Shown: positions 4,814 to 26,516, counted from the stretch's first letter. The stretch is DNA of 30,613 bases from Oligoflexales bacterium (GCA_045105515.1 JBGCDR010000050.1:1-30613), one strand, 5' to 3'. Notes: generated by a model not told the origin, from the letters alone. A program made the numbers and translations.

Positions 4814-5878
4814 TTGATTTTCAAATTACTTATAACGATGTCTGCTTTTTCAATAACTGCTAATTCCACTAGATGTATGGCTGTAAATTTAGCAAAGCCA
4901 TTAAAATATATTGCAGCTATGACAGCTATTAGTGGTGTTAATATTGTCGATGCTAAGTATTTATCACAAAGAAAGAACAGTAGATCCCTAACAAAAGATG
5001 TTTGCGAAGAGAATAAAATTTCATGTGAAGAAAGAGATATCTATTTATTACTGGATTCATCTGGATCCGTTGGATCCAATGAATGGGACAAGGTAAAAAA
5101 TATTTCCAAGTCTATTGTTTCGAATTTGGATCCGCAAAACCAAAAAATAAGATTTGCGCTTTTGCAATTCTCAGATGAAGTAAATGTGTTGGCAACACCA
5201 CTGGAAGACTTCGATAGAGAAGATGTAAATAATATAACTGAAACACTACCATTTATTGGAGGTGATACGCATACATTTACAGCTATTAATGCCATTATCG
5301 ATCTTTATGATTTAGTTAACAGTAAGAGTGAAGTAAGTACTTTATCTGAAATTATTATAGTAACAGATGGTAGAGTTGCTCCCAATTCTGAAGTTCCTTG
5401 CCCTCTAAAGGGTGATCTTGAAAATCGAGGAATCAGGGTACATATTGTTGCGGCTGGTGAAGCTGATTTAGCCGAAGTACAATGTCTAACAGACCTTGGC
5501 AACACAACGATTTTCAACGATACTGATGTACTGAATAATGACAAAGAATTTTCAAAGCAGGTATGCCAAAAGCCAATTAATTATTGTCCTGAAACTTACG
5601 TTGGTCAAGGAGGTGATTTTATTCCATCTATGTACCAGGTTAATCTTGAAGAAGGTGAACTAAGATGTACCTATTATTATGAAGGAACTTTTAGTTGTCC
5701 TACAGATAGTGACATGGCTAGTATATCAGAACACCCACATTTCCTGTTTCACTGGAAAGATAGAACTTCATATTTGGGATCGGATCGCTTGCTTAGATGT
5801 AATTATCACTTAAAATGCGCAAACCCTGAAAAAAGCGAATGGACAAAACCTAAGGATTGCTTTGACCGCAGAAAATAG
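4814..5878 (+). CDS. Secreted von Willebrand factor A domain protein with Cys-rich C-terminus
   Basis: GGAGG 6 nt before TTG and a signal-like N-terminus. DIYLLLDSSGSV (MIDAS DxSxS), RFALLQFS, GGDTHT, IIIVTDG. Two CP...LRCxY segments at the C-terminus. Confidence 0.85.
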   Translation: MIFKLLITMSAFSITANSTRCMAVNLAKPLKYIAAMTAISGVNIVDAKYLSQRKNSRSLTKDVCEENKISCEERDIYLLLDSSGSVGSNEWDKVKNISKSIVSNLDPQNQKIRFALLQFSDEVNVLATPLEDFDREDVNNITETLPFIGGDTHTFTAINAIIDLYDLVNSKSEVSTLSEIIIVTDGRVAPNSEVPCPLKGDLENRGIRVHIVAAGEADLAEVQCLTDLGNTTIFNDTDVLNNDKEFSKQVCQKPINYCPETYVGQGGDFIPSMYQVNLEEGELRCTYYYEGTFSCPTDSDMASISEHPHFLFHWKDRTSYLGSDRLLRCNYHLKCANPEKSEWTKPKDCFDRRK

Positions 5879-5929
5879 CTGGCTAATGTGGGTGTCTAGA
5901 CAATATAAGGTGCCAATTGTCTTTGATAG

Positions 5930-8900
5930 CTAGTATGAAGACTGAATGATATGAATATCTTCAAGACCTGTGGCACTTACATTAGCAGGAGGCACACTCA
6001 ACTGCTCGTAGCTGATATTTTTGCCATTTTTTTTAAAGCTCGCATGACTTGATTGCAAAAACCCATAATTAAGCAATGAATTAAGCAAGAGATCAAAAGT
6101 ATCGCGATCAACCATCAGTTTCTTCTTCGAAACGTACTGAAATAAAGAAGTTTTAGACCAAGACTTACGTTCTTTAGCAAAATTCCAAACATCTTTTAAA
6201 ATCTGTTTCTCTCTTTGTGATGGAGTACGTAGAGACTTAAACTCGCTGACGCCTGGAATACAAATATCACAGCTCTTACACGGTTTTGAATCTTCGGTAT
6301 CACCAAAATAACGAATTAGTTGCACCATCCTACAGGCATTTGCTTCTTTTGCAAAATTCCACACAGAATCCAACTGCCCAAGACGAAATTCTTTTTGCTT
6401 GCGATAGCTGTCTTCCCAAGACTCTTTGCTAGGGTAAATCATAGAACTATGCTCATTAACAATAGCACCATGAATCCATAACTTTTCTAAAAAAACTTCC
6501 CCCTCTTCATGGTCTAAGAGTTCCAAAAGCTCATGTCTGCTAATGCCTTCCTTGGGAATTTTTTCGTAAATATCAGCTAAAAGAGAAGGTTCAGGATAAT
6601 TGACGTCATGTAAAAATAGATGAGTCTTTTGATCTACATATGAGTAAAGCATGATAGCCTTGGAAGGTTTACCATCTCGTCCAGCACGTCCAATTTCTTG
6701 GTAATAGCCCGCAAGTGTCGAAGGAAGTGCCATGTGAATTACTGAGCGAATATTATTTTTATCTATTCCCATTCCAAAGGCCACGGTAGCAACGACGACA
6801 TCAGTCTTGCCACTCATGAACTCGTCTTGAACTTTTTGTCTATAATCTGTACTTAGACCAGCATGATACGCTCGTGCTGGTACCACAGCGGATAAAGATG
6901 CAGCTATTTTTTCAGTTTCTTTGCGAGTAAGTACATAGATAATAGCCGGTCTATTTTTCTTATGTTGTAGAAAAGACATGATTGCAGCAAAACGCTCATT
7001 TTTTGGTATATTAACTACTTCTAGCTGCAAATTTTTTCGCCGAAACCCAGCAATAAACTTACTACTAGATTCTAATGAGAGCTGCTCAAGAATATCTTTC
7101 TGCACTTCTTTGGTAGCTGTAGCTGTTAAAGCTATCTTGGGTACCTTTGCGAAGACCTCTAAGCGTTCTCCGATTTTTCTATAATCTGACCTAAAATCAT
7201 GGCCCCACTGGGAAATGCAATGAGCTTCATCAATCGCTACAAGAGCTAGCTGCTTTTGAGCGAGAAGCTGCATAAATCCAGGCAGACCAAGACGCTCAGG
7301 AGCAACAAAAAGAAAGTCTAAATTGCCTTTCAAGTATTGTCGACAAACCTCTCGTGATTCTTCTCGACTTCGCCCAGAGTGAATACGCTCTGCACGCAAC
7401 CCTAAGTCATTCAACTTAGTAACCTGATCTTCCATCAATGCAATCAGAGGACTAATAATCAAGCCAGTCCCCTGGCGTGCAAGGCTTGGAAGTTGATAAC
7501 AAAGAGACTTGCCTGCGCCAGTAGGCATAACAATAAGAGCATCCTCACCCTTAAGTAGAGCAGCACATACCTGTTTTTGTGGTTTGCGAAAGCTTTTCAA
7601 ACCAAAGCAATCACGCAAAATATCCTCTAAGGAAGCTTTATTCGTCTCGTATTGTGTTTTTTGCACAGACGCTTCTTTACTTACCGAGTTTTGAGGCTCC
7701 TGCTTATAATGGGATGCCAATGTCCTAGCTTCGGGAATAGGTCTACTCGCTTGTTGACTAATCATTTGGCTTGGACTTTCCCCCACCTTTGCAGAAAGCG
7801 GAGCTAGATTTGTAACAAGCTTACTTACATGAGCTTCGATCTTAGTCATAAATGAGTCAAGAGGCAGTTGTCCCCTAGAAATCTTGTCAAGCAACGATTC
7901 CCACTCACCAGTCATTTTAGGGCTTTTAAGATCGACATTAACCAAGTCAATGAGCTGCATCCCTTTGTCCTTAACCCTTAGCGACTTACCATCACGCAAA
8001 ATATAATCGCGTTTGATCAGAGTTTCAATTATTGCTGCCCTAGTCGCTGGAGTGCCTAGTCCTGTATCTTTCATAGCATTAGAAAGATCCTTTTCCTCCA
8101 ATAAACTACCAGCTGTTTCCATACCTGTTAGCAGCCTTGCCTCTGTCATAGGTGGAGGAGGTTTAGTACTAGCCTCACGTTTCTTTACCTGGATAGGGTA
8201 GACATGCATGCCTTGCTGAAGTTCAGTAGGAAGAATAGGCTCCCCCGATTTCTTGGCAGCTCGCATAGGAATTTCTTCCTCTAAAGCTTTCCAACCCAAT
8301 TGTAAAACGCGAGTTCCCTTGCTAGCAAAATAGTAGCATTTTTCGTTAACCTGACTTAATTTTGATGTCAAACTAGTTAAAAGTGTCGTGGTGGAACTTT
8401 TATAGGAATCCTGATAGGCGCTCAACAACCTAATACACACTAAGTCGTAGATCAGCCTCTGATCCTTATTTAAACCAACCGGCTCTACTCCTGTAGGTAG
8501 AATACCATGGTGTTCACCAACCTTTGCATCATTAACATGCCTTTTACCAAGTTTAACGTGGCCTGTTTCTTCTTTTATTATCAGAGCATAAGGTGCTTTT
8601 ACTGCTTCAACAACCTTAGGGAGAATTTTTGCTTCTTCCTTTGAAATATAACGACAATCGGTACGAGGATAACTAATACATTTTTTTTGCTCATAAAGTG
8701 ACTGAGCAATATCCAAGGTTTTCTTGGCACTGAAACCACATAAACGATTTGCATGCCGTTGCAACTCAGTCAAATCGTAAAATAAAGGTGGCAAAATTTC
8801 GTTTGTTTTTTCGGCTATTTTTTCAAGCTTAGCACTTGCACCCTTGAACGTCTTTAGAATCTCGTCAAGAATAGAGTCCTTTGGCGAAAGCCTTCTTGCC

Positions 8901-9700
8901 TTGAGCCAATCAGTTTTTTCCTTGCACGTACTTAAGAAGTTATGTGCCCATACAGGGCCTACATACCAACCTATATATGCATGATCTTGGTCTCTACGAA
9001 TATCGAAATCTAAGTTGTCTACATCTGTCGATAAACAGCTGAACACCCCCTTAATTTCTGCATATTTTTCAGGTACAAAGTTCAAAATTTCTTTTTCTCT
9101 TTGAACTAGAATTGCCAGAGTGGGAGTTTGAACCCTTCCAATGGATAACACATCTTTGTAAACAAGTGAGTAAGCGCGCGATAAATTCATACCCACAAGC
9201 CAGTCAGCACGGCTGCGACCTCTAGCACTATCTGCTAGATTGTTATAAAGCTCCCCATCCTTCAGATTCTTAAAACCTTTTTGAATGGCTGACTTTGTGA
9301 GAGAAGAAATCCACAAACGCTTGATGGGTTTAGAGCATGAAGCTTCTTCGTAAATAAACCGAAAAATCAGCTCACCTTCTCTGCCTGCATCCGTAGCGCA
9401 GATTACCTCGGAAGTTTCCCTAGCATTTAAAAGGCGCTTAACAACTTTGAACTGATCTATGGTTTGAGTGCTGACTTTTAATATCCATCCTTTTGGAATC
9501 ATCGGCAATTGTCGCAGGTTCCACGACTTCCATGCGGGCTCCATATCAGCAGGATCACCAAGTTTAACAAGGTGGCCTATAGCCCAAGTGATCTTGTAAG
9601 CTTTGCCGGCGAAATATCCTTTATGCCTCTCTTTAATCCCTAATGCTGCAGCAATGTCCCTTGCAACTGAAGGCTTCTCTGCAACAACTACGGCAACCAC
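5930..9700 (-). CDS. topB-recQ: DNA topoisomerase III - RecQ helicase fusion protein
   Basis: Single open frame. Topo IA motifs: AEKPS, ATDAGREGE, GRVQTPTL, catalytic SYPRTD, GLGTPATRA. RecQ motifs: MPTGAGKSLCYQLP, DEAHCISQWGHDFR, ALTATA, AFGMGIDK, YYQEIGRAGRDG and RQC cysteines. Start placed at GTG 9700 after a GGGGG SD rather than at the track's 9766. Confidence 0.95.
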   Translation of the reverse strand: MVAVVVAEKPSVARDIAAALGIKERHKGYFAGKAYKITWAIGHLVKLGDPADMEPAWKSWNLRQLPMIPKGWILKVSTQTIDQFKVVKRLLNARETSEVICATDAGREGELIFRFIYEEASCSKPIKRLWISSLTKSAIQKGFKNLKDGELYNNLADSARGRSRADWLVGMNLSRAYSLVYKDVLSIGRVQTPTLAILVQREKEILNFVPEKYAEIKGVFSCLSTDVDNLDFDIRRDQDHAYIGWYVGPVWAHNFLSTCKEKTDWLKARRLSPKDSILDEILKTFKGASAKLEKIAEKTNEILPPLFYDLTELQRHANRLCGFSAKKTLDIAQSLYEQKKCISYPRTDCRYISKEEAKILPKVVEAVKAPYALIIKEETGHVKLGKRHVNDAKVGEHHGILPTGVEPVGLNKDQRLIYDLVCIRLLSAYQDSYKSSTTTLLTSLTSKLSQVNEKCYYFASKGTRVLQLGWKALEEEIPMRAAKKSGEPILPTELQQGMHVYPIQVKKREASTKPPPPMTEARLLTGMETAGSLLEEKDLSNAMKDTGLGTPATRAAIIETLIKRDYILRDGKSLRVKDKGMQLIDLVNVDLKSPKMTGEWESLLDKISRGQLPLDSFMTKIEAHVSKLVTNLAPLSAKVGESPSQMISQQASRPIPEARTLASHYKQEPQNSVSKEASVQKTQYETNKASLEDILRDCFGLKSFRKPQKQVCAALLKGEDALIVMPTGAGKSLCYQLPSLARQGTGLIISPLIALMEDQVTKLNDLGLRAERIHSGRSREESREVCRQYLKGNLDFLFVAPERLGLPGFMQLLAQKQLALVAIDEAHCISQWGHDFRSDYRKIGERLEVFAKVPKIALTATATKEVQKDILEQLSLESSSKFIAGFRRKNLQLEVVNIPKNERFAAIMSFLQHKKNRPAIIYVLTRKETEKIAASLSAVVPARAYHAGLSTDYRQKVQDEFMSGKTDVVVATVAFGMGIDKNNIRSVIHMALPSTLAGYYQEIGRAGRDGKPSKAIMLYSYVDQKTHLFLHDVNYPEPSLLADIYEKIPKEGISRHELLELLDHEEGEVFLEKLWIHGAIVNEHSSMIYPSKESWEDSYRKQKEFRLGQLDSVWNFAKEANACRMVQLIRYFGDTEDSKPCKSCDICIPGVSEFKSLRTPSQREKQILKDVWNFAKERKSWSKTSLFQYVSKKKLMVDRDTFDLLLNSLLNYGFLQSSHASFKKNGKNISYEQLSVPPANVSATGLEDIHIIQSSY

Positions 9701-10178
9701 ATGCAACCCCCTGCCCAAATTAAAAGCTTGCCGAGTATTCTCATTTTTATGGCAATGCCTGCACAAGCTAACAACTAAAGGCCATAATGTCCACTGACAC
9801 CCTACGGCTTTAAGTATTGTAGATGGGATTGGTATAAGGAAACACGCAAAATTTATAGCATTCCAATGTATGAGCCCTATATTTACATGAAACCGCCCCC
9901 GTACTTTTTATAAGCAATTGAATTTATTGGGGACAAAAACATAAGAAACTGGCCAGTCAGTCAACTTGATATCCTCATTCGCTAAAATCCTTAAACCCCT
10001 TGGTGTTTATTATCTAGCGAGATAGTGTTCGTACACAACGGCTAATCCAAATAAAATATTATGAGAGTATCAGAGAACCTTGTCCAAGAACCTACATAGT
10101 GCAGGCCTATTGCGGCACAGGATTTGGCATGTTTGCTGGTCGACGACAAACCAAAGCAGGAAGGTAAAGGATCGAAGC

Positions 10179-12805: not shown

Positions 12806-13336
12806 ATGTTAAAATTCATGATCCCAATATTTTTCTTAGGCTTTTTTCAGCAACTCCAAGCACATCCTACTACAATGGGTTCTATTTCAGGAGAGCACAT
12901 AAGCTTACAAACTATTGGACACTCTTTTGCTGGCTCCATAAAAGATCGTATTATTTTAGGCCGAAAACTCCCTGGGCAATTTATTTCTGAAATTAAAATC
13001 GTTGACCATGACCACGAGTCAGTTTCCTACTTTAAAAGTAATAATAACAATGTCTTTGGTGGAGAAATAAATATCCGCACTGCTGACACTTCTAAAACCA
13101 TGCAAATAGAATTTGTCGAACTAGTGAAAGAAGAAAATCGCTATACTCTTAAATTTGATGGCAAACTTACCAATGTTATTGTCACTGCAGATGACTTCTC
13201 AGACGGACATTTTATTAATCCTGAGTACACGATGGAATACAAAGGAGAAGTTCACCAATTTAAGCTAAATGGTCAAGCATGCTATGGCTACTCTCTACAT
13301 CTGATTGCTATGATTATGGGAGCATTAATCATCTAA
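12806..13336 (+). CDS. Secreted hypothetical protein, beta-rich with a hydrophobic C-terminal helix
   Basis: AAGGAG SD, signal peptide ending LQA, 176-aa ORF. Confidence 0.8.
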   Translation: MLKFMIPIFFLGFFQQLQAHPTTMGSISGEHISLQTIGHSFAGSIKDRIILGRKLPGQFISEIKIVDHDHESVSYFKSNNNNVFGGEINIRTADTSKTMQIEFVELVKEENRYTLKFDGKLTNVIVTADDFSDGHFINPEYTMEYKGEVHQFKLNGQACYGYSLHLIAMIMGALII

Positions 13337-14211
13337 CTCTCAGGATTATAACTATCATAAAAAAACAGAAATTGGATACGATCTTCCTCAACAATACGAG
13401 GGGCTCGGTGAATAACGCCGGAGCTTGGAAAACCTGCACCAGCTAGCAAGTAGTCTACCCCTTTTCTGATAGGCTGAGCGGTTATCTCTTCCTCATACCA
13501 TGTGTTCATATGGTAAGCGTTACACTGCCGGCTTGCTACAAATTTACCTGAATAAATAGTCTCTCTAAGCAAAAAATTTGGATAAAACTTGGTGTGATCT
13601 TGATCACACCCTAGCATTGTCAGCATTCCAGCATCAGACCTTATGTTATCAAGATGCCACTTTGTTGCGTCAAGTTGAGTACGGTCACGGGTATTAGACT
13701 TTGCTCTAGCAAATCTAATTGCACCAAGCAAATTGGTCTCACCGCTTTCAAACCTACGTCCTAATCTCTTAGTATCCTTATAAATTTGGGCTGTTTCAAT
13801 AAAGTTCCTAACTAATGATTCTTCAATCTTTTTTCTATTTTTCGAGCGAATATATTTTTTTTCTTTATTAATTTTATGCATCATATTTTTAAAAGTTAGA
13901 TCGTAGTTTTCCTCTAAAAGATCTTCACTAGATAGAACAAAGTGTATCTGACCAGAATCTATTAAAGACGATCGATAACCTTTCCACAAACCTTCAAAGG
14001 CTCCTTTTTGTTCATAGCGAACTTCTGTACGAATCCTTTGCCTCAATGGATGCCCTATATCTACAACATGAGAAATATAAAAACTTCTTGCAGCAACTGC
14101 AGCAAATGTGGCTCCTTTTATCAATCCAATGACACTAACCATATACATATTCCTATTTCTATTCTTTATCTTCATTTTTATAATTAAAAAAAAATGAATC
14201 ATACTTACCAA
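13333..14211 (-). CDS. Hypothetical protein with a C-terminal DUF1826-like / Fe(II)-2OG oxygenase-like motif set (start uncertain)
   Basis: WHLD (HxD) ... GVDYLLAG...GVIHRAP...DRIQFLFFYD resembles the DUF1826 pattern FHVD...GDVALLKG...GLVHRSP...RLLLTLD. Confidence 0.55.
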   Translation of the reverse strand: MVSMIHFFLIIKMKIKNRNRNMYMVSVIGLIKGATFAAVAARSFYISHVVDIGHPLRQRIRTEVRYEQKGAFEGLWKGYRSSLIDSGQIHFVLSSEDLLEENYDLTFKNMMHKINKEKKYIRSKNRKKIEESLVRNFIETAQIYKDTKRLGRRFESGETNLLGAIRFARAKSNTRDRTQLDATKWHLDNIRSDAGMLTMLGCDQDHTKFYPNFLLRETIYSGKFVASRQCNAYHMNTWYEEEITAQPIRKGVDYLLAGAGFPSSGVIHRAPRIVEEDRIQFLFFYDSYNPES

Positions 14212-14422: not shown

Positions 14423-15361
14423 ATGAGGTACTTAAAGTTAAATCACAATATCAGAGAAAATTTAGATCGATTCAATGTAAAAATTGACCACGATAGTTTT
14501 GTCAATTTTTTTTCTAAAAGGTATGAGTTCCCCGAGCTAAAGTTACCTATGATGGTAGAGGAACTACTTAGTGCAGACCCTAAGTGTTCAAAGCTGATAG
14601 ACGCTTTTCACGAAAAACAAAAAGCTTCTGAACTTGACGAACTGGCAAAGAACAATAAAAAATTCGATGAACTTTTGGAAAAGCTAAAAAAGAAACCAAG
14701 CAAGACTACAAAAATTACCAAAGAACGAACCGAACGGAAAATTTCCAAGCTTGAGTTGAAGATTAAAAAGCATGATAGTAAAAAAATGTATGATTATGAT
14801 TATCGAGTTTATCCACTTTTCTATACCCCTATAGTAGTTATGGGGCCGGATAAAAATCCAATTCTAAAACCCATGCGCTTTCAATGCCTACCACGAACAA
14901 AAGACGAAGAATATGATAAAGAGCATGGTTTATATAAAGCTAAAAAAGAAAGCTTAACTGAAAAATACTTTGAAAGAATTAGGAAAAACAGTAGTACTAA
15001 AAGTGTATGGGAGCCACTTTTCGGACATAGTCATGGTATTATCATTCTTAGCGGATTTTACGAATATAATAAATCTGGAAAAAATATCGGGTTTGGTACA
15101 AGTAAGTCCGAATTTTTACTGGTTCCTTGTTTATACGATCTCTGGAAGTCAGCAGACGGCAAAAAGCAATTAGAGTCTTTTGCAGTAATAACTGATAAGG
15201 CGTCTAACCTCATTAAAGAGTCAGGATATCATCGTTGTCCAGTCAATATCAAGGCATGTCATTTTGAAGCATGGCTTAATCCTGATGGAATTTCTAATAA
15301 GGACCTTCATTCTATTTTAGAAGACAATATGCAAGAACCCTTTGTCGAGTTAGCTTCTTAA
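14423..15361 (+). CDS. SOS response-associated peptidase (SRAP/YedK/HMCES) family protein, long form, lacking Cys2
   Basis: RVYPLFYTPIV, PMRFQC, WEPLFGHSHGIIILSGFYE, LVPCLYDLW, LESFAVITD, HRCPVNI and WLNP match the long SRAP subfamily with a coiled-coil insert. The N-terminus is MRY instead of MCY. Confidence 0.88.
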   Translation: MRYLKLNHNIRENLDRFNVKIDHDSFVNFFSKRYEFPELKLPMMVEELLSADPKCSKLIDAFHEKQKASELDELAKNNKKFDELLEKLKKKPSKTTKITKERTERKISKLELKIKKHDSKKMYDYDYRVYPLFYTPIVVMGPDKNPILKPMRFQCLPRTKDEEYDKEHGLYKAKKESLTEKYFERIRKNSSTKSVWEPLFGHSHGIIILSGFYEYNKSGKNIGFGTSKSEFLLVPCLYDLWKSADGKKQLESFAVITDKASNLIKESGYHRCPVNIKACHFEAWLNPDGISNKDLHSILEDNMQEPFVELAS

Positions 15362-15652: not shown

Positions 15653-16414
15653 CTAACAGAAACGTTCAAAATCGTTGCAGACACTTTTTAAACGTGACTG
15701 ACAGTCGGGTTCAACCCAACTTAGTGGGGGAGAACTTTTATAGCGTGCTAATCGCTGATTAAATGACTGTTTAGTATTAAATGCAGAACTGGAAGCCGAG
15801 TTAGAAGCAAACCCTTCCCCTTCTTGAAGCACATCTACCCACATTGGAATCATAGCGCCTTCACACCAATTAACAATAGTTGAAAAGTCAAATGCTACAT
15901 GAGGAAACCTTAAGGGATCATTCTGCTCAACAAGCATTAATATCTGATTGTCGGGAACTCTGGGTAGAATCTGCTCAGAACCTGCTTTTCCAAGAGTCAC
16001 TACATGTACTTCAATGCCAAAACGCCAAATAGCTGCAATAGCCATGATCCAAATAGAAGGGCTAGGCTTGTGCTTACCGGCATTTGAGTTGAAAGCAAAA
16101 CCTTTGTTCAAATTGCCTTCTGTTTTAATTAAACTGGCTACAAAGCTACTCACATAAATAGAGTTTCTTTCTTCGTAGAAGGGGAATTTATGTTCCCAAG
16201 TATTTTCAAACTGTTGCAACAGAGTATTGACCCGGCTAAGTCTTTTCGATACGTCACAGACACTAATCCCAGAGCTACTAGAAAGAGACTTCAAATCCTT
16301 TTGGTAGCAGCACGAAAAGGCTTTAGATAAAAGTTCCGCTTTACCATCTTTGAGTATTATACCCATCAAATTATCACTGAAATTTCGATTCAATTCCTTT
16401 ATAAAGCAGCGCAC
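15653..16414 (-). CDS. Hypothetical protein, possible degenerate DnaC/IstB-like AAA+ paralog
   Basis: Starts 6 bp after the ATPase stop. Collinear motif remnants SNAGKHKP, LMLVEQ and QSRLKSVC. The ORF is well supported; the homology is by eye only. Confidence 0.6.
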   Translation of the reverse strand: MRCFIKELNRNFSDNLMGIILKDGKAELLSKAFSCCYQKDLKSLSSSSGISVCDVSKRLSRVNTLLQQFENTWEHKFPFYEERNSIYVSSFVASLIKTEGNLNKGFAFNSNAGKHKPSPSIWIMAIAAIWRFGIEVHVVTLGKAGSEQILPRVPDNQILMLVEQNDPLRFPHVAFDFSTIVNWCEGAMIPMWVDVLQEGEGFASNSASSSAFNTKQSFNQRLARYKSSPPLSWVEPDCQSRLKSVCNDFERFC

Positions 16415-16420
16415 TAAGCT

Positions 16421-17341
16421 TCAACCTTTCCGGTCCCGGTATCGATAGTCATCTCCCTCCATTTTCCAAAAATAACAGGTCTCAGATAAACGAGAAAAAA
16501 TCCGTTCACCAACAGCAGCCTTAAGAGTCGGAAAGTTATGAAAATCACTGGGATCTATGTTAGTGACGACATTTTCTAACGAACAGTTGGTTGATGCGAT
16601 GATAATTTTCTGTTGATTGTACCGACCCATCACCAACTGGTCTATAATTGTTTGTTCGAAATTAGTTCTACGGCCCTTTCCAAGCTCATCAATCAAAAGT
16701 ACATCCACCTTAAGAAGCGGGTTTAAAATACTTTCGTCTACATCTTGCTTTAGACTGTACTTCGCCTTAATCTCGGTGATTAATTGAAAGAAATCAACAA
16801 ACTTAACTGAAAGACCTTTAAAAATCAGGTGTTTTGCGATGGATGTTAGTAGGTAGGTTTTGCCGACTCCCACTCCACCTTCTACTATAATGCCTTTTTG
16901 CTGATTGAGGCTTTGGTTCTTGCCAATAAACTGTAACCAGCACTTTACTTTGTCTAAAATTTCTTTGACGTTGCCAGTAAAGTTTTTAAAATTTTCCAAT
17001 CTGGCGAGAGCATAGCGACTTGGTATGTTTGCTTGGTTAAAAAGGTTAACCATAATGGTAGGGCTTGGGCTATGACAAGGTCTCGCAGTACCTGAGCTTA
17101 CGTCCATTGCAGCCCCTTGACATTGTCTGCAAGTACGTACGCATTCACAAAGCTCTGAGTTAGCAAAAAAACCTTTGGGACTAAATACGATGCCGTACCC
17201 TCGACAATGCTCACATTTACCAGCAGCAAGAGCGCATGCATTTTGTGACAGAATGTCGCTTTTGGACTTTAGCGGTGATTCATCTTTATTAAGAGTATCC
17301 AGTCGCTCCAGCAATGATTGTTTTTCATGAGTTGGCTCCAT
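16421..17341 (-). CDS. DnaC/DnaI/IstB-like AAA+ ATPase with N-terminal Cys-rich Zn-binding region
   Basis: CEHC...CECVRTCRQC...C, IPSRY, Walker A GGVGVGKT, Walker B VLLIDELG, ASTN, GERIFSRL, GDDYR. Start placed at ATG 17341 (GGGGG SD) because the track start at 17398 lies within the rpsD terminator. Confidence 0.9.
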   Translation of the reverse strand: MEPTHEKQSLLERLDTLNKDESPLKSKSDILSQNACALAAGKCEHCRGYGIVFSPKGFFANSELCECVRTCRQCQGAAMDVSSGTARPCHSPSPTIMVNLFNQANIPSRYALARLENFKNFTGNVKEILDKVKCWLQFIGKNQSLNQQKGIIVEGGVGVGKTYLLTSIAKHLIFKGLSVKFVDFFQLITEIKAKYSLKQDVDESILNPLLKVDVLLIDELGKGRRTNFEQTIIDQLVMGRYNQQKIIIASTNCSLENVVTNIDPSDFHNFPTLKAAVGERIFSRLSETCYFWKMEGDDYRYRDRKG

Positions 17342-17390
17342 GCCAATGAACCCCCGAGCAGATAAGGCAAATTTGCGCAAAAAAAGCTGC

Positions 17391-17431
17391 AAAAACAAAG
17401 CCCAATCCTCCGGAATGAAGAATTGGGCTTT
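17391..17431 (-). terminator. Rho-independent terminator of rpsD
   Basis: Inverted repeat AAAGCCCAAT...ATTGGGCTTT followed by GTTTTT on the minus strand, about 30 nt after the rpsD stop. Confidence 0.75.
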
Positions 17432-24471: not shown

Positions 24472-25140
24472 ATGAGAGCTCAATTTTTTTTGTGCCTAAC
24501 AGTTTGCCTAAATCTCACTGCTTCATGCATAGCTTCCAGGGGTTACACAAAAGTTGATTACCTCGAAGATCGCTCGTTACCTGGGGTAAGCCGCAAAATC
24601 TCAATAAATTTTTCCAATCTTAGCGTGGTGCGTACCGAAAAAGGCAAGGAAAAGTCAGCGAGCATCAAACCTGTTGTAGAAGGCTTTATGCTTTCCAATA
24701 GTGGCTACTTTCTTACAATCCAATCCATTCAAGGTGAAGAAGACCTCTTTTTTCGATTCAAGACAGTTACTTTAGAGAAAGATCTTTCTTTCCTCGCAAA
24801 AGCCCCAAAATATCTTTACCTCACTGCTTCAATTTTATCCTTAACCGTGATCCCATTTTATGATCGCACTTATAGAAGACTTGAAGTAGAGGTCATCCAA
24901 GGGGGCAAGCTCTTAAAACGTTATAAATATAAAGACTACTACGTAAGGGTAAGCTGGTTTGGCATGCTTCCTTGGTGGCGGGTTTCCGACTTCGGCGATT
25001 TTTTCTATTGGGAGACCGAAGCTAGTCGCTCAGTTGACCACAACATGGTAAATCGCTTCTTAGCAGATTTCGGAAAGGACTTTCTGCCAAAACAAGTAAA
25101 AAAACAAAAAACCAGAACAAAAACAAAAACTAGAAATTAG
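24472..25140 (+). CDS. Putative lipoprotein of unknown function
   Basis: AGGA SD, short signal with lipobox-like LTASC, internal hydrophobic segment ILSLTVIPF, basic low-complexity tail. Confidence 0.75.
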   Translation: MRAQFFLCLTVCLNLTASCIASRGYTKVDYLEDRSLPGVSRKISINFSNLSVVRTEKGKEKSASIKPVVEGFMLSNSGYFLTIQSIQGEEDLFFRFKTVTLEKDLSFLAKAPKYLYLTASILSLTVIPFYDRTYRRLEVEVIQGGKLLKRYKYKDYYVRVSWFGMLPWWRVSDFGDFFYWETEASRSVDHNMVNRFLADFGKDFLPKQVKKQKTRTKTKTRN

Positions 25141-26516
25141 AAGTCATCAAATTCAACATCATAATCAGGCACATCTTCATAATCTATATCATCATCATCA
25201 AAGCTATCATCAAACATTTGTATTTCATCTACTTCAATTGGCACAGTATCGGGTAAGATTGTAGTCTCAGGCTCCTCCTGTTCGATGACTTTAAGCTCTT
25301 CTTCTCTAAATGCAGGATTTGCTTTGAAAGCTTCTAATTCAGTTTGCAGGTTTTTAAGCCTTTGACCACCCCAAGTATTTACAATACTCCGAGCATAAGT
25401 TCGAACGCGCATATCCGGATCTTCAAGTGCAGCAACTGGATAATAGTCTAAGGACTCTTTTTGGAATCCAGCTCTTTTAAAAGCTTTCAAAATAAACACC
25501 CTAGCAGCTGGATTGATCATTTTAATAGCATGCTTGAGTACATATCGCTCACCAGGAGAACTATTTACAATAAAGCGTTTCACAAAATTTGCTACCAGGC
25601 TTGGTCTAGCATCTCCCAGAGCCTTGTCGACATTTAGTTTTTTAACAGGCACTCCAAACTCCGCAAGAGCCATCACAGCACGCATTCTGGTCCAAAACAT
25701 TGTGTCATCGAGAGCATCCCACAATATGACACGACTTTGTACTAAACGACTACTCTTGACTTCTAGAACAGTCTTGTATCGCTGCCAGGGGTATCTGTTT
25801 GTAATCCCTACTCGCCAAACCTGCTCTTCTTGGGCACTCCAAATTCTTGACATTGGCTCGATCTCAGGTAGAGAGTTGGGTATATAGCTGTATACGCTAA
25901 TTTCTACTTTCCTTGGGCTTTTCGGGACCTTCACTTCCTCTAGCGCCTGAGGATTTACCGGTACTGGAGGTAAGAATGTATTGCCAGGAGCATCGATGCC
26001 CTCATCAGCTATTTTATCGCCTCCTGGAAAATTCTTAGGTTTAGCAGGCTTAGCTCTTGTAGGTTGACGTTTGGGTGGAGACGTCGGAAAGCTGTCTAAA
26101 TCTGGTTCTTCGATTCCTTGGACATTATTTATAAGATCTTGAATAGACACACCTTCTCCATCAAGGAAACTCAATCCTATGTAACCTAAGGCTACAATGA
26201 CCCCTAGAAGAATCACAAAACTAATAACCTTTTTGAGCACATCAGCAATATCAGATCCATCTTCTGGACTCAGCTGACCTTCCCCTCCAAAGCCATCATG
26301 TGGAGTATCAACACCTGGTACTCCTACATCCCCTGGAGCCCCGAAGTCTCCGCCTCCATGCCCTGGGACATAGTCCATGCTTTTGAAGCCCGAGGCAGTA
26401 TCATGACTATTAGTTAACGAAGTTTGGGCGTTATCGGCCCAATTCCCTCCCTGCCCTATATCATTAGAGAGGTTAATTTCGACACCATCAGTTGCGGGAG
26501 GAAAAGGGTTTGTCAC
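25137..26516 (-). CDS. Single-pass membrane protein with Pro-rich linker, HEAT-like helical domain and acidic tail
   Basis: GGAG SD and GTG start. TM VISFVILLGVIVALGYIGL. HEAT-like segments ALDDTMFWTRMRAVMALAEFG and ALEDPDMRVRTYA. Confidence 0.75.
   Translation of the reverse strand: MTNPFPPATDGVEINLSNDIGQGGNWADNAQTSLTNSHDTASGFKSMDYVPGHGGGDFGAPGDVGVPGVDTPHDGFGGEGQLSPEDGSDIADVLKKVISFVILLGVIVALGYIGLSFLDGEGVSIQDLINNVQGIEEPDLDSFPTSPPKRQPTRAKPAKPKNFPGGDKIADEGIDAPGNTFLPPVPVNPQALEEVKVPKSPRKVEISVYSYIPNSLPEIEPMSRIWSAQEEQVWRVGITNRYPWQRYKTVLEVKSSRLVQSRVILWDALDDTMFWTRMRAVMALAEFGVPVKKLNVDKALGDARPSLVANFVKRFIVNSSPGERYVLKHAIKMINPAARVFILKAFKRAGFQKESLDYYPVAALEDPDMRVRTYARSIVNTWGGQRLKNLQTELEAFKANPAFREEELKVIEQEEPETTILPDTVPIEVDEIQMFDDSFDDDDIDYEDVPDYDVEFDDF

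Follow-up and report, generated by a model that had tools for sequence, protein, structure and literature searches.

Results

One reading frame encodes topoisomerase III and RecQ

The window, a 30,613-nucleotide stretch of DNA from an uncultured marine Oligoflexales bacterium (JBGCDR010000050.1), carries on its minus strand a single open frame (5930..9766 in the ORF list) in which topoisomerase III is fused to a RecQ helicase (Table 1). AGGGGG lies seven bases upstream of the probable GTG start (9700), and because this start gives a protein of 1256 amino acids, the same as database entry P0002, we take 5930-9700 to be the right coordinates of the gene. Residues are numbered as in P0002 except where P0001 is named, which is the 1278-aa frame (P0002 plus 22).

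Table 1 Features of the TopoIII-RecQ fusion gene in window coordinates.
Feature	Position	Strand	Basis
Whole TopoIII-RecQ fusion gene, 1256 codons; stop 5930-5932	5930..9700	-	ORF list, translation, identical database gene call P0002
GTG start 9698-9700 with Shine-Dalgarno-like AGGGGG ~9707-9712	9698..9712	-	Sequence; homologue N-termini agree
Toprim domain, P0002 4-133; Glu8 in AEKPS, acidic motif D104-A-G-R-E108	9302..9691	-	Pfam PF01751; E. coli topo III alignment
Type IA topoisomerase core, domains II-IV, P0002 151-618	7847..9250	-	PF01131; same coordinates in genome search
Catalytic Tyr344 codon (ISYPRTD)	8669..8671	-	Aligned to E. coli topo III active-site motif
Decatenation-loop equivalent, P0002 ~530-546	8063..8113	-	Ungapped against E. 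coli residues 502-519; family-conserved
Disordered Ser/Gln/Ala-rich linker, P0002 ~634-690, 57 aa	7631..7801	-	Gap-rich, unconserved; pLDDT under 50 at its end
RecQ RecA-like domain 1; Walker A (MPTGAGKS) with K731, DEAH 824-827	7100..7585	-	Pfam DEAD; D. radiodurans and E. coli RecQ alignment; AF2
RecQ RecA-like domain 2; arginine finger QEIGRAGRDG	6671..6994	-	Pfam Helicase_C; RecQ alignment; AF2
Insert of ~58-64 aa between RecA2 and zinc site, P0002 1035-1092; motifs YP, EKLWIHG	6425..6598	-	Alignment; AF2
RecQ zinc-binding subdomain; long helix; Cys1123, 1141, 1144, 1147	6260..6415	-	PF16124; RecQ structure alignment
C-terminal winged-helix (RQC-type) domain, P0002 ~1153-1249; no HRDC after	5954..6244	-	AF2, Foldseek, VIA-align

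The fusion gene is real, intact and chromosomal. Its junction is crossed by Logan contigs of 12.7 kb (run X1) and 25.7 kb (run X3), each covering 5800-9900 without a difference or a gap, and an X2 contig covering 5800-8681 includes the junction unchanged. As the three runs probably represent the source samples, the contigs are re-assemblies and not independent organisms. Runs X4-X6 contained only small shares of the stretch, and the X4 pieces were short, 98-99% alike and did not cross the junction. The same-genus genome G001 has the gene at full length and 81% identity, and fusions also lie on closed or very large contigs (G075, one contig of 7.6 Mb; Stigmatella, 10.3 Mb; Labilithrix, 12.2 Mb). 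The GC content of the gene resembles that of its flanks. Promoter and terminator scans at the gene gave no excess over shuffled sequence (9 vs 9.1 and 5 vs 3.7), and there was no RNA run among the runs listed as containing the stretch.

The gene is monocistronic, in a housekeeping setting of ordinary chromosomal genes. Next to it lie genes for a VWA protein, a secreted P-domain protein, NhaA and a sensor kinase, and none for an integrase, a relaxase, a transfer function or a defence partner. The source assembly is a metagenome-assembled bin of 461 contigs (90.9% complete, 4.8% contamination), and no other RecQ or TopoIII was found in it, the fusion gene giving the sole Topoisom_bac match and the sole recQ_fam match over cut-off. 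No topA was found in this genome either, most likely because of a gap in the assembly: in the order, topA passes its cut-off in 33 of 41 genomes, G001 among them. The topoisomerase half was matched by at least 5000 plasmid records, 3681 of them conjugative; the fused form was found neither in 72,556 plasmid records (0 with at least 80% coverage among 5000 matches scored) nor in 50,697 phage records (0 of 62 matches).

Both halves retain the motifs of their enzyme families

In Pfam, the topoisomerase half matched Toprim (PF01751; P0001 26-155, 43.5 bits, cut-off 23.1) and Topoisom_bac (PF01131; P0001 173-640, 332.5 bits). Among NCBIfam models it passed those for DNA topoisomerase 3 (PRK07726/NF005829; 626 bits, cut-off 597) and topB (TIGR01056; 527.1 bits, cut-off 515.75), and topA_bact gave only 179 bits (cut-off 456). 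Its best structural match was E. coli topo III (1d6m, 1i7d; 256 bits), with which the active-site tyrosine and the decatenation-loop region align: Tyr344 in ISYPRTDCRY pairs with the tyrosine of E. coli ITYPRSDCRY and is invariant in 120 fused relatives. The Toprim acidic cluster keeps Glu8, Asp104 and Glu108, whereas the middle Asp of DxDxE is Gly (DAGRE vs E. coli DPDRE). DAGREGE occurs in 241 of 241 sequences collected and DAARE in eight other TopBs of the order; since the Gly is the same throughout the fused clade, it is probably tolerated. The E. coli decatenation loop, which we take to be residues 502-519 and to set topo III apart from topo I, reads GIARFVQDKDLKKILRAT, and the equivalent region here, AGSLLEEKDLSNAMKDT, aligns to it without a gap and is less basic. 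Because the topo III cut-offs are passed and this region is kept ungapped, the topoisomerase half is predicted to be of the decatenase type.

The helicase half matched DEAD (P0001 728-889, 99 bits), Helicase_C (925-1032, 82.7 bits) and RecQ_Zn_bind (PF16124; 1119-1169, 40.6 bits, cut-off 25) in Pfam and the NCBIfam recQ_fam model TIGR00614 (408 bits, cut-off 219.8). The recQ equivalog TIGR01389 was not reached (465.4 bits, cut-off 640.2, over profile positions 2-335 only). E. coli RecQ (1oyw) aligned with this half at 304 bits. An AF2 model of the RecQ half (pLDDT 90.7, pTM 0.87) matched RecQ catalytic cores in Foldseek, winged helix included (4tmu, TM 0.66/0.74). RQC had no Pfam match in the fusion protein at E <= 0.01; the winged helix is seen in the AF2 models, and in VIA-align it scored Z 8.8 with DrRecQ, 8.6 with RECQ1 and 8.1 with the WRN RQC, tied with many other winged helices. 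Across the 120 fused relatives Glu8, Asp104/Glu108, Tyr344, K731, DEAH, the arginine finger and the four cysteines are invariant, and judged by their motifs both enzyme halves look active.

HRDC (PF00570) had no Pfam match in the fusion protein at E <= 0.01, and only 109 residues follow its last zinc cysteine. A C-terminal HRDC is present in 99 of the best 120 fused relatives and not in the nearest ones (P0003-P0010), and its absence here is apparently a lineage-specific loss. HRDC, found in E. coli RecQ and BLM, is not universal in the RecQ family.

These results bear out the parts list of an earlier note made from the sequence alone. That note had described topoisomerase III and RecQ in one uninterrupted frame, which is a single ORF identical to P0002 with Pfam domains of both enzymes; the architecture it named (Toprim, Topoisom_bac, DEAD, Helicase_C, RecQ_Zn_bind) was matched in full. 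Its complete type IA core with the catalytic Tyr in SYPRTD is upheld by the Tyr344 alignment and the PF01131 score, and its full RecQ helicase with cysteines by the motor motifs, RecQ_Zn_bind and four zinc cysteines aligned to RecQ structures. It was also right that HRDC and topoisomerase Zn ribbons are missing, neither having a Pfam match (for the ribbons, at E <= 0.01). The ~55-aa Ser/Gln/Pro-rich linker measured 57 aa and is rich in Ser, Gln and Ala, and the reads that the note proposed mapping across it are represented by the X1, X2 and X3 contigs, which pass the junction unchanged. The note gave no strand and mentioned neither the additional insert of the zinc domain nor that the HRDC loss is particular to this lineage.

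A variable linker and a conserved insert

Linker length across the family ranges from 23 to 167 aa (median 52; 116 of the 120 relatives measured). The linkers are Pro/Ala/Ser-rich and their sequence is unconserved even among relatives 80% identical, which marks the linker as, to all appearances, a tether and not a domain. Being long and variable, it argues for proximity only and not for mechanical coupling.

The region from RecA2 to the zinc site is ~100 residues long in the fusion protein vs 36 in E. coli RecQ. The insert is ungapped and conserved across the 120 relatives, and two AF2 models predict three helices plus a beta-hairpin (local pLDDT ~90 or more); we call it winged-helix-like from the predicted order of its secondary structure alone. 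A VIA-align search with the C-terminal module returned rows only on model residues 134-230 (the C-terminal winged helix) and none on the insert. The idea that the insert duplicates that winged helix received no support (hhalign probability 7.5%). For residues 1025-1120, the ESM Atlas yielded only RecQ_Zn_bind fragment clusters (0.93) and one ssDNA-exonuclease C-terminal cluster (0.90), with no new lead. Because stand-alone RecQs with the insert occur in genomes that have no topo-half match, it is probably not a dedicated topoisomerase latch.

The fused family is widespread and patchily retained

All of the best 120 database hits (120/120) are fused; they come from Myxococcota, Acidobacteriota and Bdellovibrionota at 45-83% identity, include named loci in Oligoflexus, Bryobacter, Solibacteraceae and Polyangiaceae, and are called 'DNA topoisomerase 3' or 'ATP-dependent DNA helicase RecQ'. 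The earlier note's mention of similar fusions annotated in myxobacteria proved correct (Stigmatella, Hyalangium, Labilithrix). Beyond G001, both halves lie in one open frame in nine further genomes of the order. In the phylum sample, 23 of 131 genomes, the closed G075 among them, have a frame of at least 1100 aa strongly matching the fusion protein; for 22 of these both halves or most of the length is listed, and for G066 the RecQ half only. A full-text literature search, with paywalled papers outside its reach, found no study of a natural TopoIII-RecQ fusion. This fits the note's view that the fusion may be uncharacterised rather than unseen.

Phylogenetic trees placed the RecQ halves in one clade (SH-aLRT 100) separate from canonical RecQ and the topoisomerase halves in one clade (97) separate from the other TopBs of the order, and both trees largely track taxonomy, with Oligoflexales, Myxococcota and Acidobacteriota groups. 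The two halves thus appear to have a long common history. RecQs of the fused clade stand alone in four Acidobacteriaceae genomes (G131-G134; no topo-half match at E <= 1e-40), and 17 TopoIII proteins have only a degenerate RecA1 domain left. The trees indicate a single old fusion that later broke up repeatedly, leaving genes for RecQ alone and TopoIII genes that still carry a vestigial half-helicase. Within the window's own family, neither half was strongly matched (E <= 1e-90) in 10 of 15 other genomes, and nine of these ten, searched separately as well, had best matches of ~1e-8 to 1e-15; the fusion gene would therefore be dispensable. Given such genomes, the RecQ-only genes and the half-helicase TopoIIIs, TopoIII-RecQ coupling would not be obligatory in evolution.

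Several apparent exceptions were rejected. In G039 the TopoIII and RecQ genes look 'split' because contig ends truncate both, and L026, seemingly without the catalytic Tyr, has a run of 100 N in that region. Many 'stand-alone' topoisomerase hits proved to be fused genes with a truncation or frameshift, which have Arg-rich tails or end inside Walker A.

Discussion

We favor, at a probability of about 75%, the reading that the gene encodes a single-chain TopoIII-RecQ enzyme of an old fused family with a tethered decatenase/dissolvase role. The RecQ motor would use ATP to unwind duplex DNA at gaps, at converging forks or at migrating Holliday junctions, and this unwinding would expose the ssDNA that a type IA enzyme requires. 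The flexible ~57-residue tether would keep the Topo III module within reach, which could then cut one strand via Tyr344 and pass the other strand through. Together, the modules could resolve late replication intermediates, precatenanes and hemicatenanes by unlinking them, and could dissolve double Holliday junctions with no crossover. Covalent joining would fix a 1:1 stoichiometry at high local concentration and would replace bridging factors, namely SSB in E. coli and RMI1 with the BLM/Sgs1 N-terminus in eukaryotes. We infer all of these activities and their coupling, including that the protein would be 'self-contained' as a dissolvase or decatenase.

Could the two halves instead form an ATP-driven topoisomerase with mechanical coupling, in effect a mesophilic equivalent of reverse gyrase in reversed order, in which helicase motion gates the topoisomerase and yields directional strand passage or supercoiling? 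In reverse gyrase an SF2 helicase and a type IA topoisomerase do acquire a new ATP-driven activity, according to PMC7245102 and PMC2504306; the fused clade conserves an extra insert beside RecA2, and the degenerate RecA1 retained on 17 TopoIIIs may point to a structural role next to the topoisomerase. We nevertheless consider this unlikely, and equally doubtful that the insert and RecA1 make up the interface of a coupled ATP-dependent machine directing Topo III strand passage. The domain order is opposite to that of reverse gyrase and the rgy score far below cut-off (124 bits vs 471.7), the linker is disordered and runs from 23 to 167 aa, and the same insert is found in stand-alone RecQs of genomes without a topo-half match. 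Docking of the topoisomerase core (1-640) with RecA1-RecA2 (690-1034) scored 0.00 and 0.00, without controls, and is no evidence either way. If true, such a machine would be a mesophilic reversed-order reverse gyrase analogue that has an ATP-dependent topological activity of its own.

An accessory or mobile-element gene, of the conjugative-element TopB type or a defence helicase, would fit the patchiness of the fusion among close relatives, the frequency of TopB on conjugative plasmids (at least 5000 matches, 3681 conjugative) and a sub-threshold DpdF defence-helicase match of the RecQ half (224 bits, cut-off 550). The gene, however, has no mobile or defence neighbors, its GC is like that of its flanks, its trees largely track taxonomy and no fused form was found among the plasmid and phage matches scored, making this origin improbable. 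Least credible of all, at very long odds, is an artefact, either two neighboring genes merged by an error of assembly or sequencing or a pseudogene in decay. The source is a MAG of 461 contigs with 4.8% contamination, and some 'stand-alone' relatives in the databases are frameshifted or truncated; yet the junction is unchanged in contigs of three runs, the fusion recurs in G001, in closed genomes and in cultured myxobacteria, and the catalytic motifs are all intact.

Read as a tethered single-chain enzyme, the protein would have close functional parallels. Eukaryotic dissolvasomes assemble non-covalently through the helicase N-terminus and the OB-fold subunit RMI1. BLM-TOP3A-RMI1/2 and Sgs1-Top3-Rmi1 likewise physically join a RecQ-family helicase to a topo III-type enzyme, and BLM core structures matched the RecQ half at 270 bits (Foldseek E 5.6e-35); BLM keeps HRDC, whereas the window's fusion lacks it. 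HRDC is reported to matter in double-Holliday-junction dissolution by BLM (PMC2995041), and its absence here counts against the favored reading. The RecQ-TopoIII partnership is itself established (Harmon, DiGate and Kowalczykowski 1999, cited in PMC8185306; also PMC7245102). The chemistry expected here is like that of E. coli RecQ, TopB and SSB, with helicase-made ssDNA feeding type IA strand passage, but E. coli RecQ and TopB are separate, while the fusion is one polypeptide without HRDC, with a ~60-aa extra insert and with DAGRE for DPDRE.

Reverse gyrase has its helicase at the N-terminus, and this helicase is not a true RecQ, having no RecQ zinc domain or winged helix. The fusion protein differs in its reversed order, long and variable linker, bona fide RecQ core and mesophile hosts; TIGR01054 (rgy) falls short of its cut-off, and Pfam places topoisomerase before helicase, the opposite order that the earlier note had pointed out. 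Among the papers found, none named a fusion of a helicase with a type IA topoisomerase other than reverse gyrase, and the recent PMC7245102 calls such a fusion unique to hyperthermophiles.

New here are the separate RecQ clade with its zinc-domain insert, the probable old fusion and its break-ups, the apparent HRDC loss and the finding of a sole RecQ/TopoIII in the assembly. Physical coordination between RecQ helicases and type IA topoisomerases is still studied for the most part in multi-protein assemblies such as BTRR, STR and E. coli RecQ/TopoIII/SSB. As a natural compact single-chain enzyme of mesophiles, of 1256 residues and with thousands of sequence relatives, the fusion lends itself to cryo-EM, single-molecule work and interface co-evolution analysis. 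The family's 23-167-aa linkers, HRDC loss, RecQ-only forms and TopoIII-plus-half-helicase forms show which parts are separable. Annotation is also affected, as fused proteins are currently named after one of their two halves. In Listeria monocytogenes the two functions are linked independently, as separate genes on one strand and in the opposite order: recQ comes first, the topoisomerase III gene follows after a gap of 23 bases, and identity to the window's protein is ~39%.

One polypeptide carries complete topoisomerase III and RecQ modules

Domain searches bear out the earlier description of this gene as topoisomerase III and RecQ in one polypeptide: Pfam places Toprim, Topoisom_bac, DEAD, Helicase_C and RecQ_Zn_bind in this order within a single open frame, each over its cut-off. 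Translation from the probable GTG start gives 1256 residues, the same protein as an existing database gene call (P0002, whose numbering is used here). NCBIfam models assign the N-terminal half to topoisomerase III (626 bits against a cut-off of 597; topB, 527 against 516) and the C-terminal half to the RecQ family (408 against 220), and the C-terminal half does not reach the E. coli-type recQ equivalog (465 bits against 640). The HRDC domain and topoisomerase zinc ribbons had been reported absent, and Pfam at E <= 0.01 likewise found no HRDC, RQC or topoisomerase zinc ribbon in the fusion protein.

Features of the fusion gene and of the broken-up forms of the family
Feature	Position or members	Strand	Remarks
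TopoIII-RecQ open frame	5930..9766, counted from first TTG	minus	ORF list
GTG start, probable	9700	minus	AGGGGG seven bases before
Linker	residues ~634-690 of P0002	minus	Ser-, Gln-, Ala-rich
Stand-alone RecQs of the fused clade	loci L022, L023, L025, L029, L031-L041, L043, L044; genomes G131-G134		with insert, mostly with HRDC; mainly Acidobacteriaceae
TopoIII + linker + RecA1 only, ~855-892 aa	proteins P0217, P0144, P0153-P0155, P0160, P0165, P0188, P0197, P0203, P0204, P0208, P0219, P0221, P0223, P0231, P0241		helicase motifs degenerate; chain stops where RecA2 would start

The closest solved structure to the topoisomerase half is E. coli topoisomerase III (256 bits), with whose active-site motif Tyr344 (ISYPRTDCRY) pairs in the alignment. 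The decatenation-loop stretch, which we take to be residues 502-519 of the E. coli enzyme in agreement with the alignment numbering, aligns free of gaps. The Toprim domain keeps Glu8, Asp104 and Glu108, and Gly replaces the middle Asp of DxDxE (DAGRE); the acidic motif reads DPDREGQ in E. coli topoisomerase III and DAGREGE in the window's protein and its relatives. This motif (window 9302-9691) does not vary among the 241 stored sequences, in which the window's own appears twice, and DAAREGE stands in eight further TopBs of the order; on this basis we read DAGRE as a feature of the clade rather than a defect. The middle Asp of the Toprim motif is missing throughout a whole TopB clade.

The RecQ half is closest to the RecQ proteins of D. 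radiodurans (330 bits), C. sakazakii (310) and E. coli (304), and alignment to RecQ structures locates the Walker A and DEAH motifs, an arginine finger and the four cysteines of the zinc site; these and the catalytic residues of the topoisomerase half (Glu8, Asp104, Glu108, Tyr344) are invariant across an alignment of 120 fused proteins. Linker length, measurable in 116 of these relatives (the anchor motifs are missing in four), runs from 23 to 167 aa with a median of 52. The linkers are Pro-, Ala- and Ser-rich and unalignable even between relatives that are 80% identical, and in the AF2 model of the RecQ half pLDDT below 50 is limited to the last linker residues.

The RecQ half contains an inserted domain

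From the end of RecA2, the second motor domain, to the first zinc cysteine there are ~100 residues in the RecQ half versus 36 in E. coli RecQ, an extra piece of ~60 residues (1035-1092). This insert is gap-free in all 120 fused relatives, and Y1035, P1036, EKLWIHG (1072-1078), W1095 and Y1099, at the insert and just after it, are invariant or nearly so. In an AF2 model of the RecQ half (pLDDT 90.7, pTM 0.87) the insert is predicted to form three helices followed by a beta-hairpin, the winged-helix order, and is succeeded by the long zinc-domain helix and the C-terminal winged helix; a second model, of residues 1020-1256, agrees with the first (pLDDT 90.6). Foldseek matched the RecQ half to RecQ catalytic cores (best 4tmu, E 3.6e-38, TM 0.66 for query and 0.74 for target). 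VIA-align placed the C-terminal domain among winged helices including the RQC of DrRecQ, RECQ1 and WRN (Z 8.1-8.8), tied with those of many regulators; its rows cover the C-terminal domain, and the winged-helix order of the insert rests on AF2 secondary structure. Recognising that the RecQ half falls in its own RecQ clade, marked by this inserted domain, is a new contribution of this window.

The fusion occurs in several bacterial lineages

All of the best 120 matches of a 5.8-billion-protein search have the fused domain set, under source names of 'DNA topoisomerase 3' or 'ATP-dependent DNA helicase RecQ', and come from Myxococcota, Acidobacteriota (Bryobacteraceae, Thermoanaerobaculia), Pseudobacteriovorax and unclassified proteobacterial bins. 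Species-representative genomes with full-length fused loci include Oligoflexus, Bryobacter, Solibacteraceae, Bryobacterales (a closed chromosome) and Polyangiaceae, and very large contigs of Stigmatella aurantiaca and Labilithrix luteola also carry the fusion. Counting the window's own, 10 of the order's 41 genomes encode both halves in a single open frame of at least 1100 aa. A frame of at least 1100 aa with a fusion match occurs in 23 of the 131 genomes of the phylum sample (among them G066, listed for the RecQ part only, and the single-contig G075), and contig ends interrupt the locus in six more. Full-text literature searches turned up no study of a naturally occurring TopoIII-RecQ fusion, and the abstract of one article calls the fusing of helicase and topoisomerase units unique to hyperthermophiles (PMC7245102). 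This fits the earlier note's suggestion that the fusion may be uncharacterised rather than unseen: this kind of fusion is already in databases and was not found in print.

In a Polyangiaceae bin (L030 / L111, G135:C64) the fused gene lies within a 1597-aa stop-to-stop frame; because the topoisomerase match starts ~268 residues into it, this protein may have an N-terminal extension. The same genome also holds a stand-alone RecQ of the fused clade and a canonical RecQ.

An old fusion with later break-up is the simplest reading

A RecQ tree was inferred (IQ-TREE quick search, LG+G4) from 59 rows, of which 30 were fused, 17 were stand-alone and 12 were canonical RecQs that served as outgroup. The set was chosen rather than exhaustive and included all 15 fused loci, 14 of the 120 fused database proteins, the 17 stand-alone loci matching the whole half, with two at contig ends omitted, and 12 of ~50 canonical loci. 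Canonical RecQ falls outside a single clade that unites the fused and the long-match stand-alone RecQs (SH-aLRT 100). The basal branches of this clade are fused forms, under a root that depends on the outgroup and the quick search, and within it 11 stand-alone RecQs of Acidobacteriaceae form the sister group of six fused RecQs of Bryobacterales type (SH-aLRT 99). AU tests, with groups named after the tree was seen, reject both a single clade of all stand-alone forms (p 0.00014) and a single clade of all fused forms (p 0.00037). A 52-row topoisomerase tree likewise separates the order's other TopBs from a clade (SH-aLRT 97) that holds the topoisomerase halves and their near stand-alone relatives.

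No topoisomerase was found within 3 kb of the stand-alone RecQs, and the topoisomerase half has no match at E <= 1e-40 in four of the Acidobacteriaceae genomes with a stand-alone RecQ (G131-G134). The 'DNA topoisomerase 3' of Telmatobacter bradus (876 aa, on a 5.0-Mb contig) is colinear with P0002 across the linker and the whole of RecA1, the first motor domain, and then ends; its RecA1 motifs are degenerate (DEAH to EEAH, TATAT to TYKVT). This TopoIII-plus-RecA1-only architecture, found in 17 of the 120 database proteins listed in the topoisomerase-half search, looks like a retained fossil of the fusion. A further protein of 840 aa (P0135), with precomputed Pfam domains Toprim, Topoisom_bac and HRDC and without helicase domains, may be an internal deletion of a fused gene. 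HRDC is present in 99 of the best 120 fused matches and in L023, a stand-alone RecQ from the window's own family, and its absence from the window's protein and its nearest relatives (P0003-P0010) is therefore a loss. The simplest reading is a single old fusion that was later broken up or partly lost on several occasions; that the two subfamilies were joined several times independently, always in this order, is less likely because it would require more events.

Genomic setting and proposed function

The fusion gene stands alone, convergent with a VWA-domain gene and divergent from the gene of a secreted P-domain protein; nearby are genes for a Na+/H+ antiporter, a hybrid sensor kinase, SRAP, rpsD and an EF-G paralogue. 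No other type IA topoisomerase, and no other RecQ over cut-off, turned up in its 90.9%-complete assembly. No topA was found in the 461 contigs of this assembly, which is probably an assembly gap because a same-genus genome (G001) has topA. Ten of the 15 other genomes of the family lack a strong match to either half, which makes the enzyme dispensable, though useful. In a 594-kb record of Listeria monocytogenes that is filed as a plasmid (NZ_LR134400.1, locus L110, 2534-6483), 23 bases separate recQ from topB; the two are distinct genes on one strand, in the order RecQ then TopoIII. Their adjacency points independently to a link between the two functions.

The analysis shows that both catalytic modules are complete, that a flexible tether joins them and that they have long evolved together. 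The RecQ/TopoIII partnership is established (cited in PMC8185306), and the mechanism proposed here is drawn from it; the fusion is a covalent variant of this known partnership. By analogy, RecQ would open duplex DNA using ATP, and the tethered topoisomerase III would move strands through a transient single-strand break. Together the modules would unlink converging forks, precatenanes and hemicatenanes and dissolve double Holliday junctions. We put the probability of such an unlinking or dissolving enzyme at roughly 75%. Within the reach of sequence analysis the earlier note's reading is supported, with the self-contained dissolvase/decatenase as a putative activity, and the observation behind it is confirmed.

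We consider a truly coupled, reverse-gyrase-like machine unlikely; the protein scores far under the cut-off of the NCBIfam reverse gyrase model (124 bits against 472). We give still less weight to a mobile or defence role, and the matches scored in plasmid and phage collections included no fused form. An artefact is very improbable. Logan contigs from three runs cross the linker, where the earlier note had suggested mapping reads, with zero differences and zero gaps; these runs probably come from the window's own samples, so they confirm the assembly and are not an independent occurrence. The same-genus G001 carries the fusion gene at 81% identity. This window also contributes a compact HRDC-less member of the fused family, evidence of an ancestral fusion with later decay, and a case of the fusion as the sole RecQ/TopoIII found in its assembly.

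Elsewhere in the window, ORFs at 12806-13336 (+), 13333-14211 (-), 24472-25140 (+) and 25137-26516 (-), of 176-459 aa, match no Pfam family at E <= 1e-4. The SRAP (SOS-response-associated peptidase) gene lies at 14423-15361 (+), with neighbours at 15653-16414 (-) and 16421-17398 (-). Next to it, an IstB/DnaC-like ATPase follows a 253-aa ORF without a Pfam match, and the two could be an IS21-type or helicase-loader pair.
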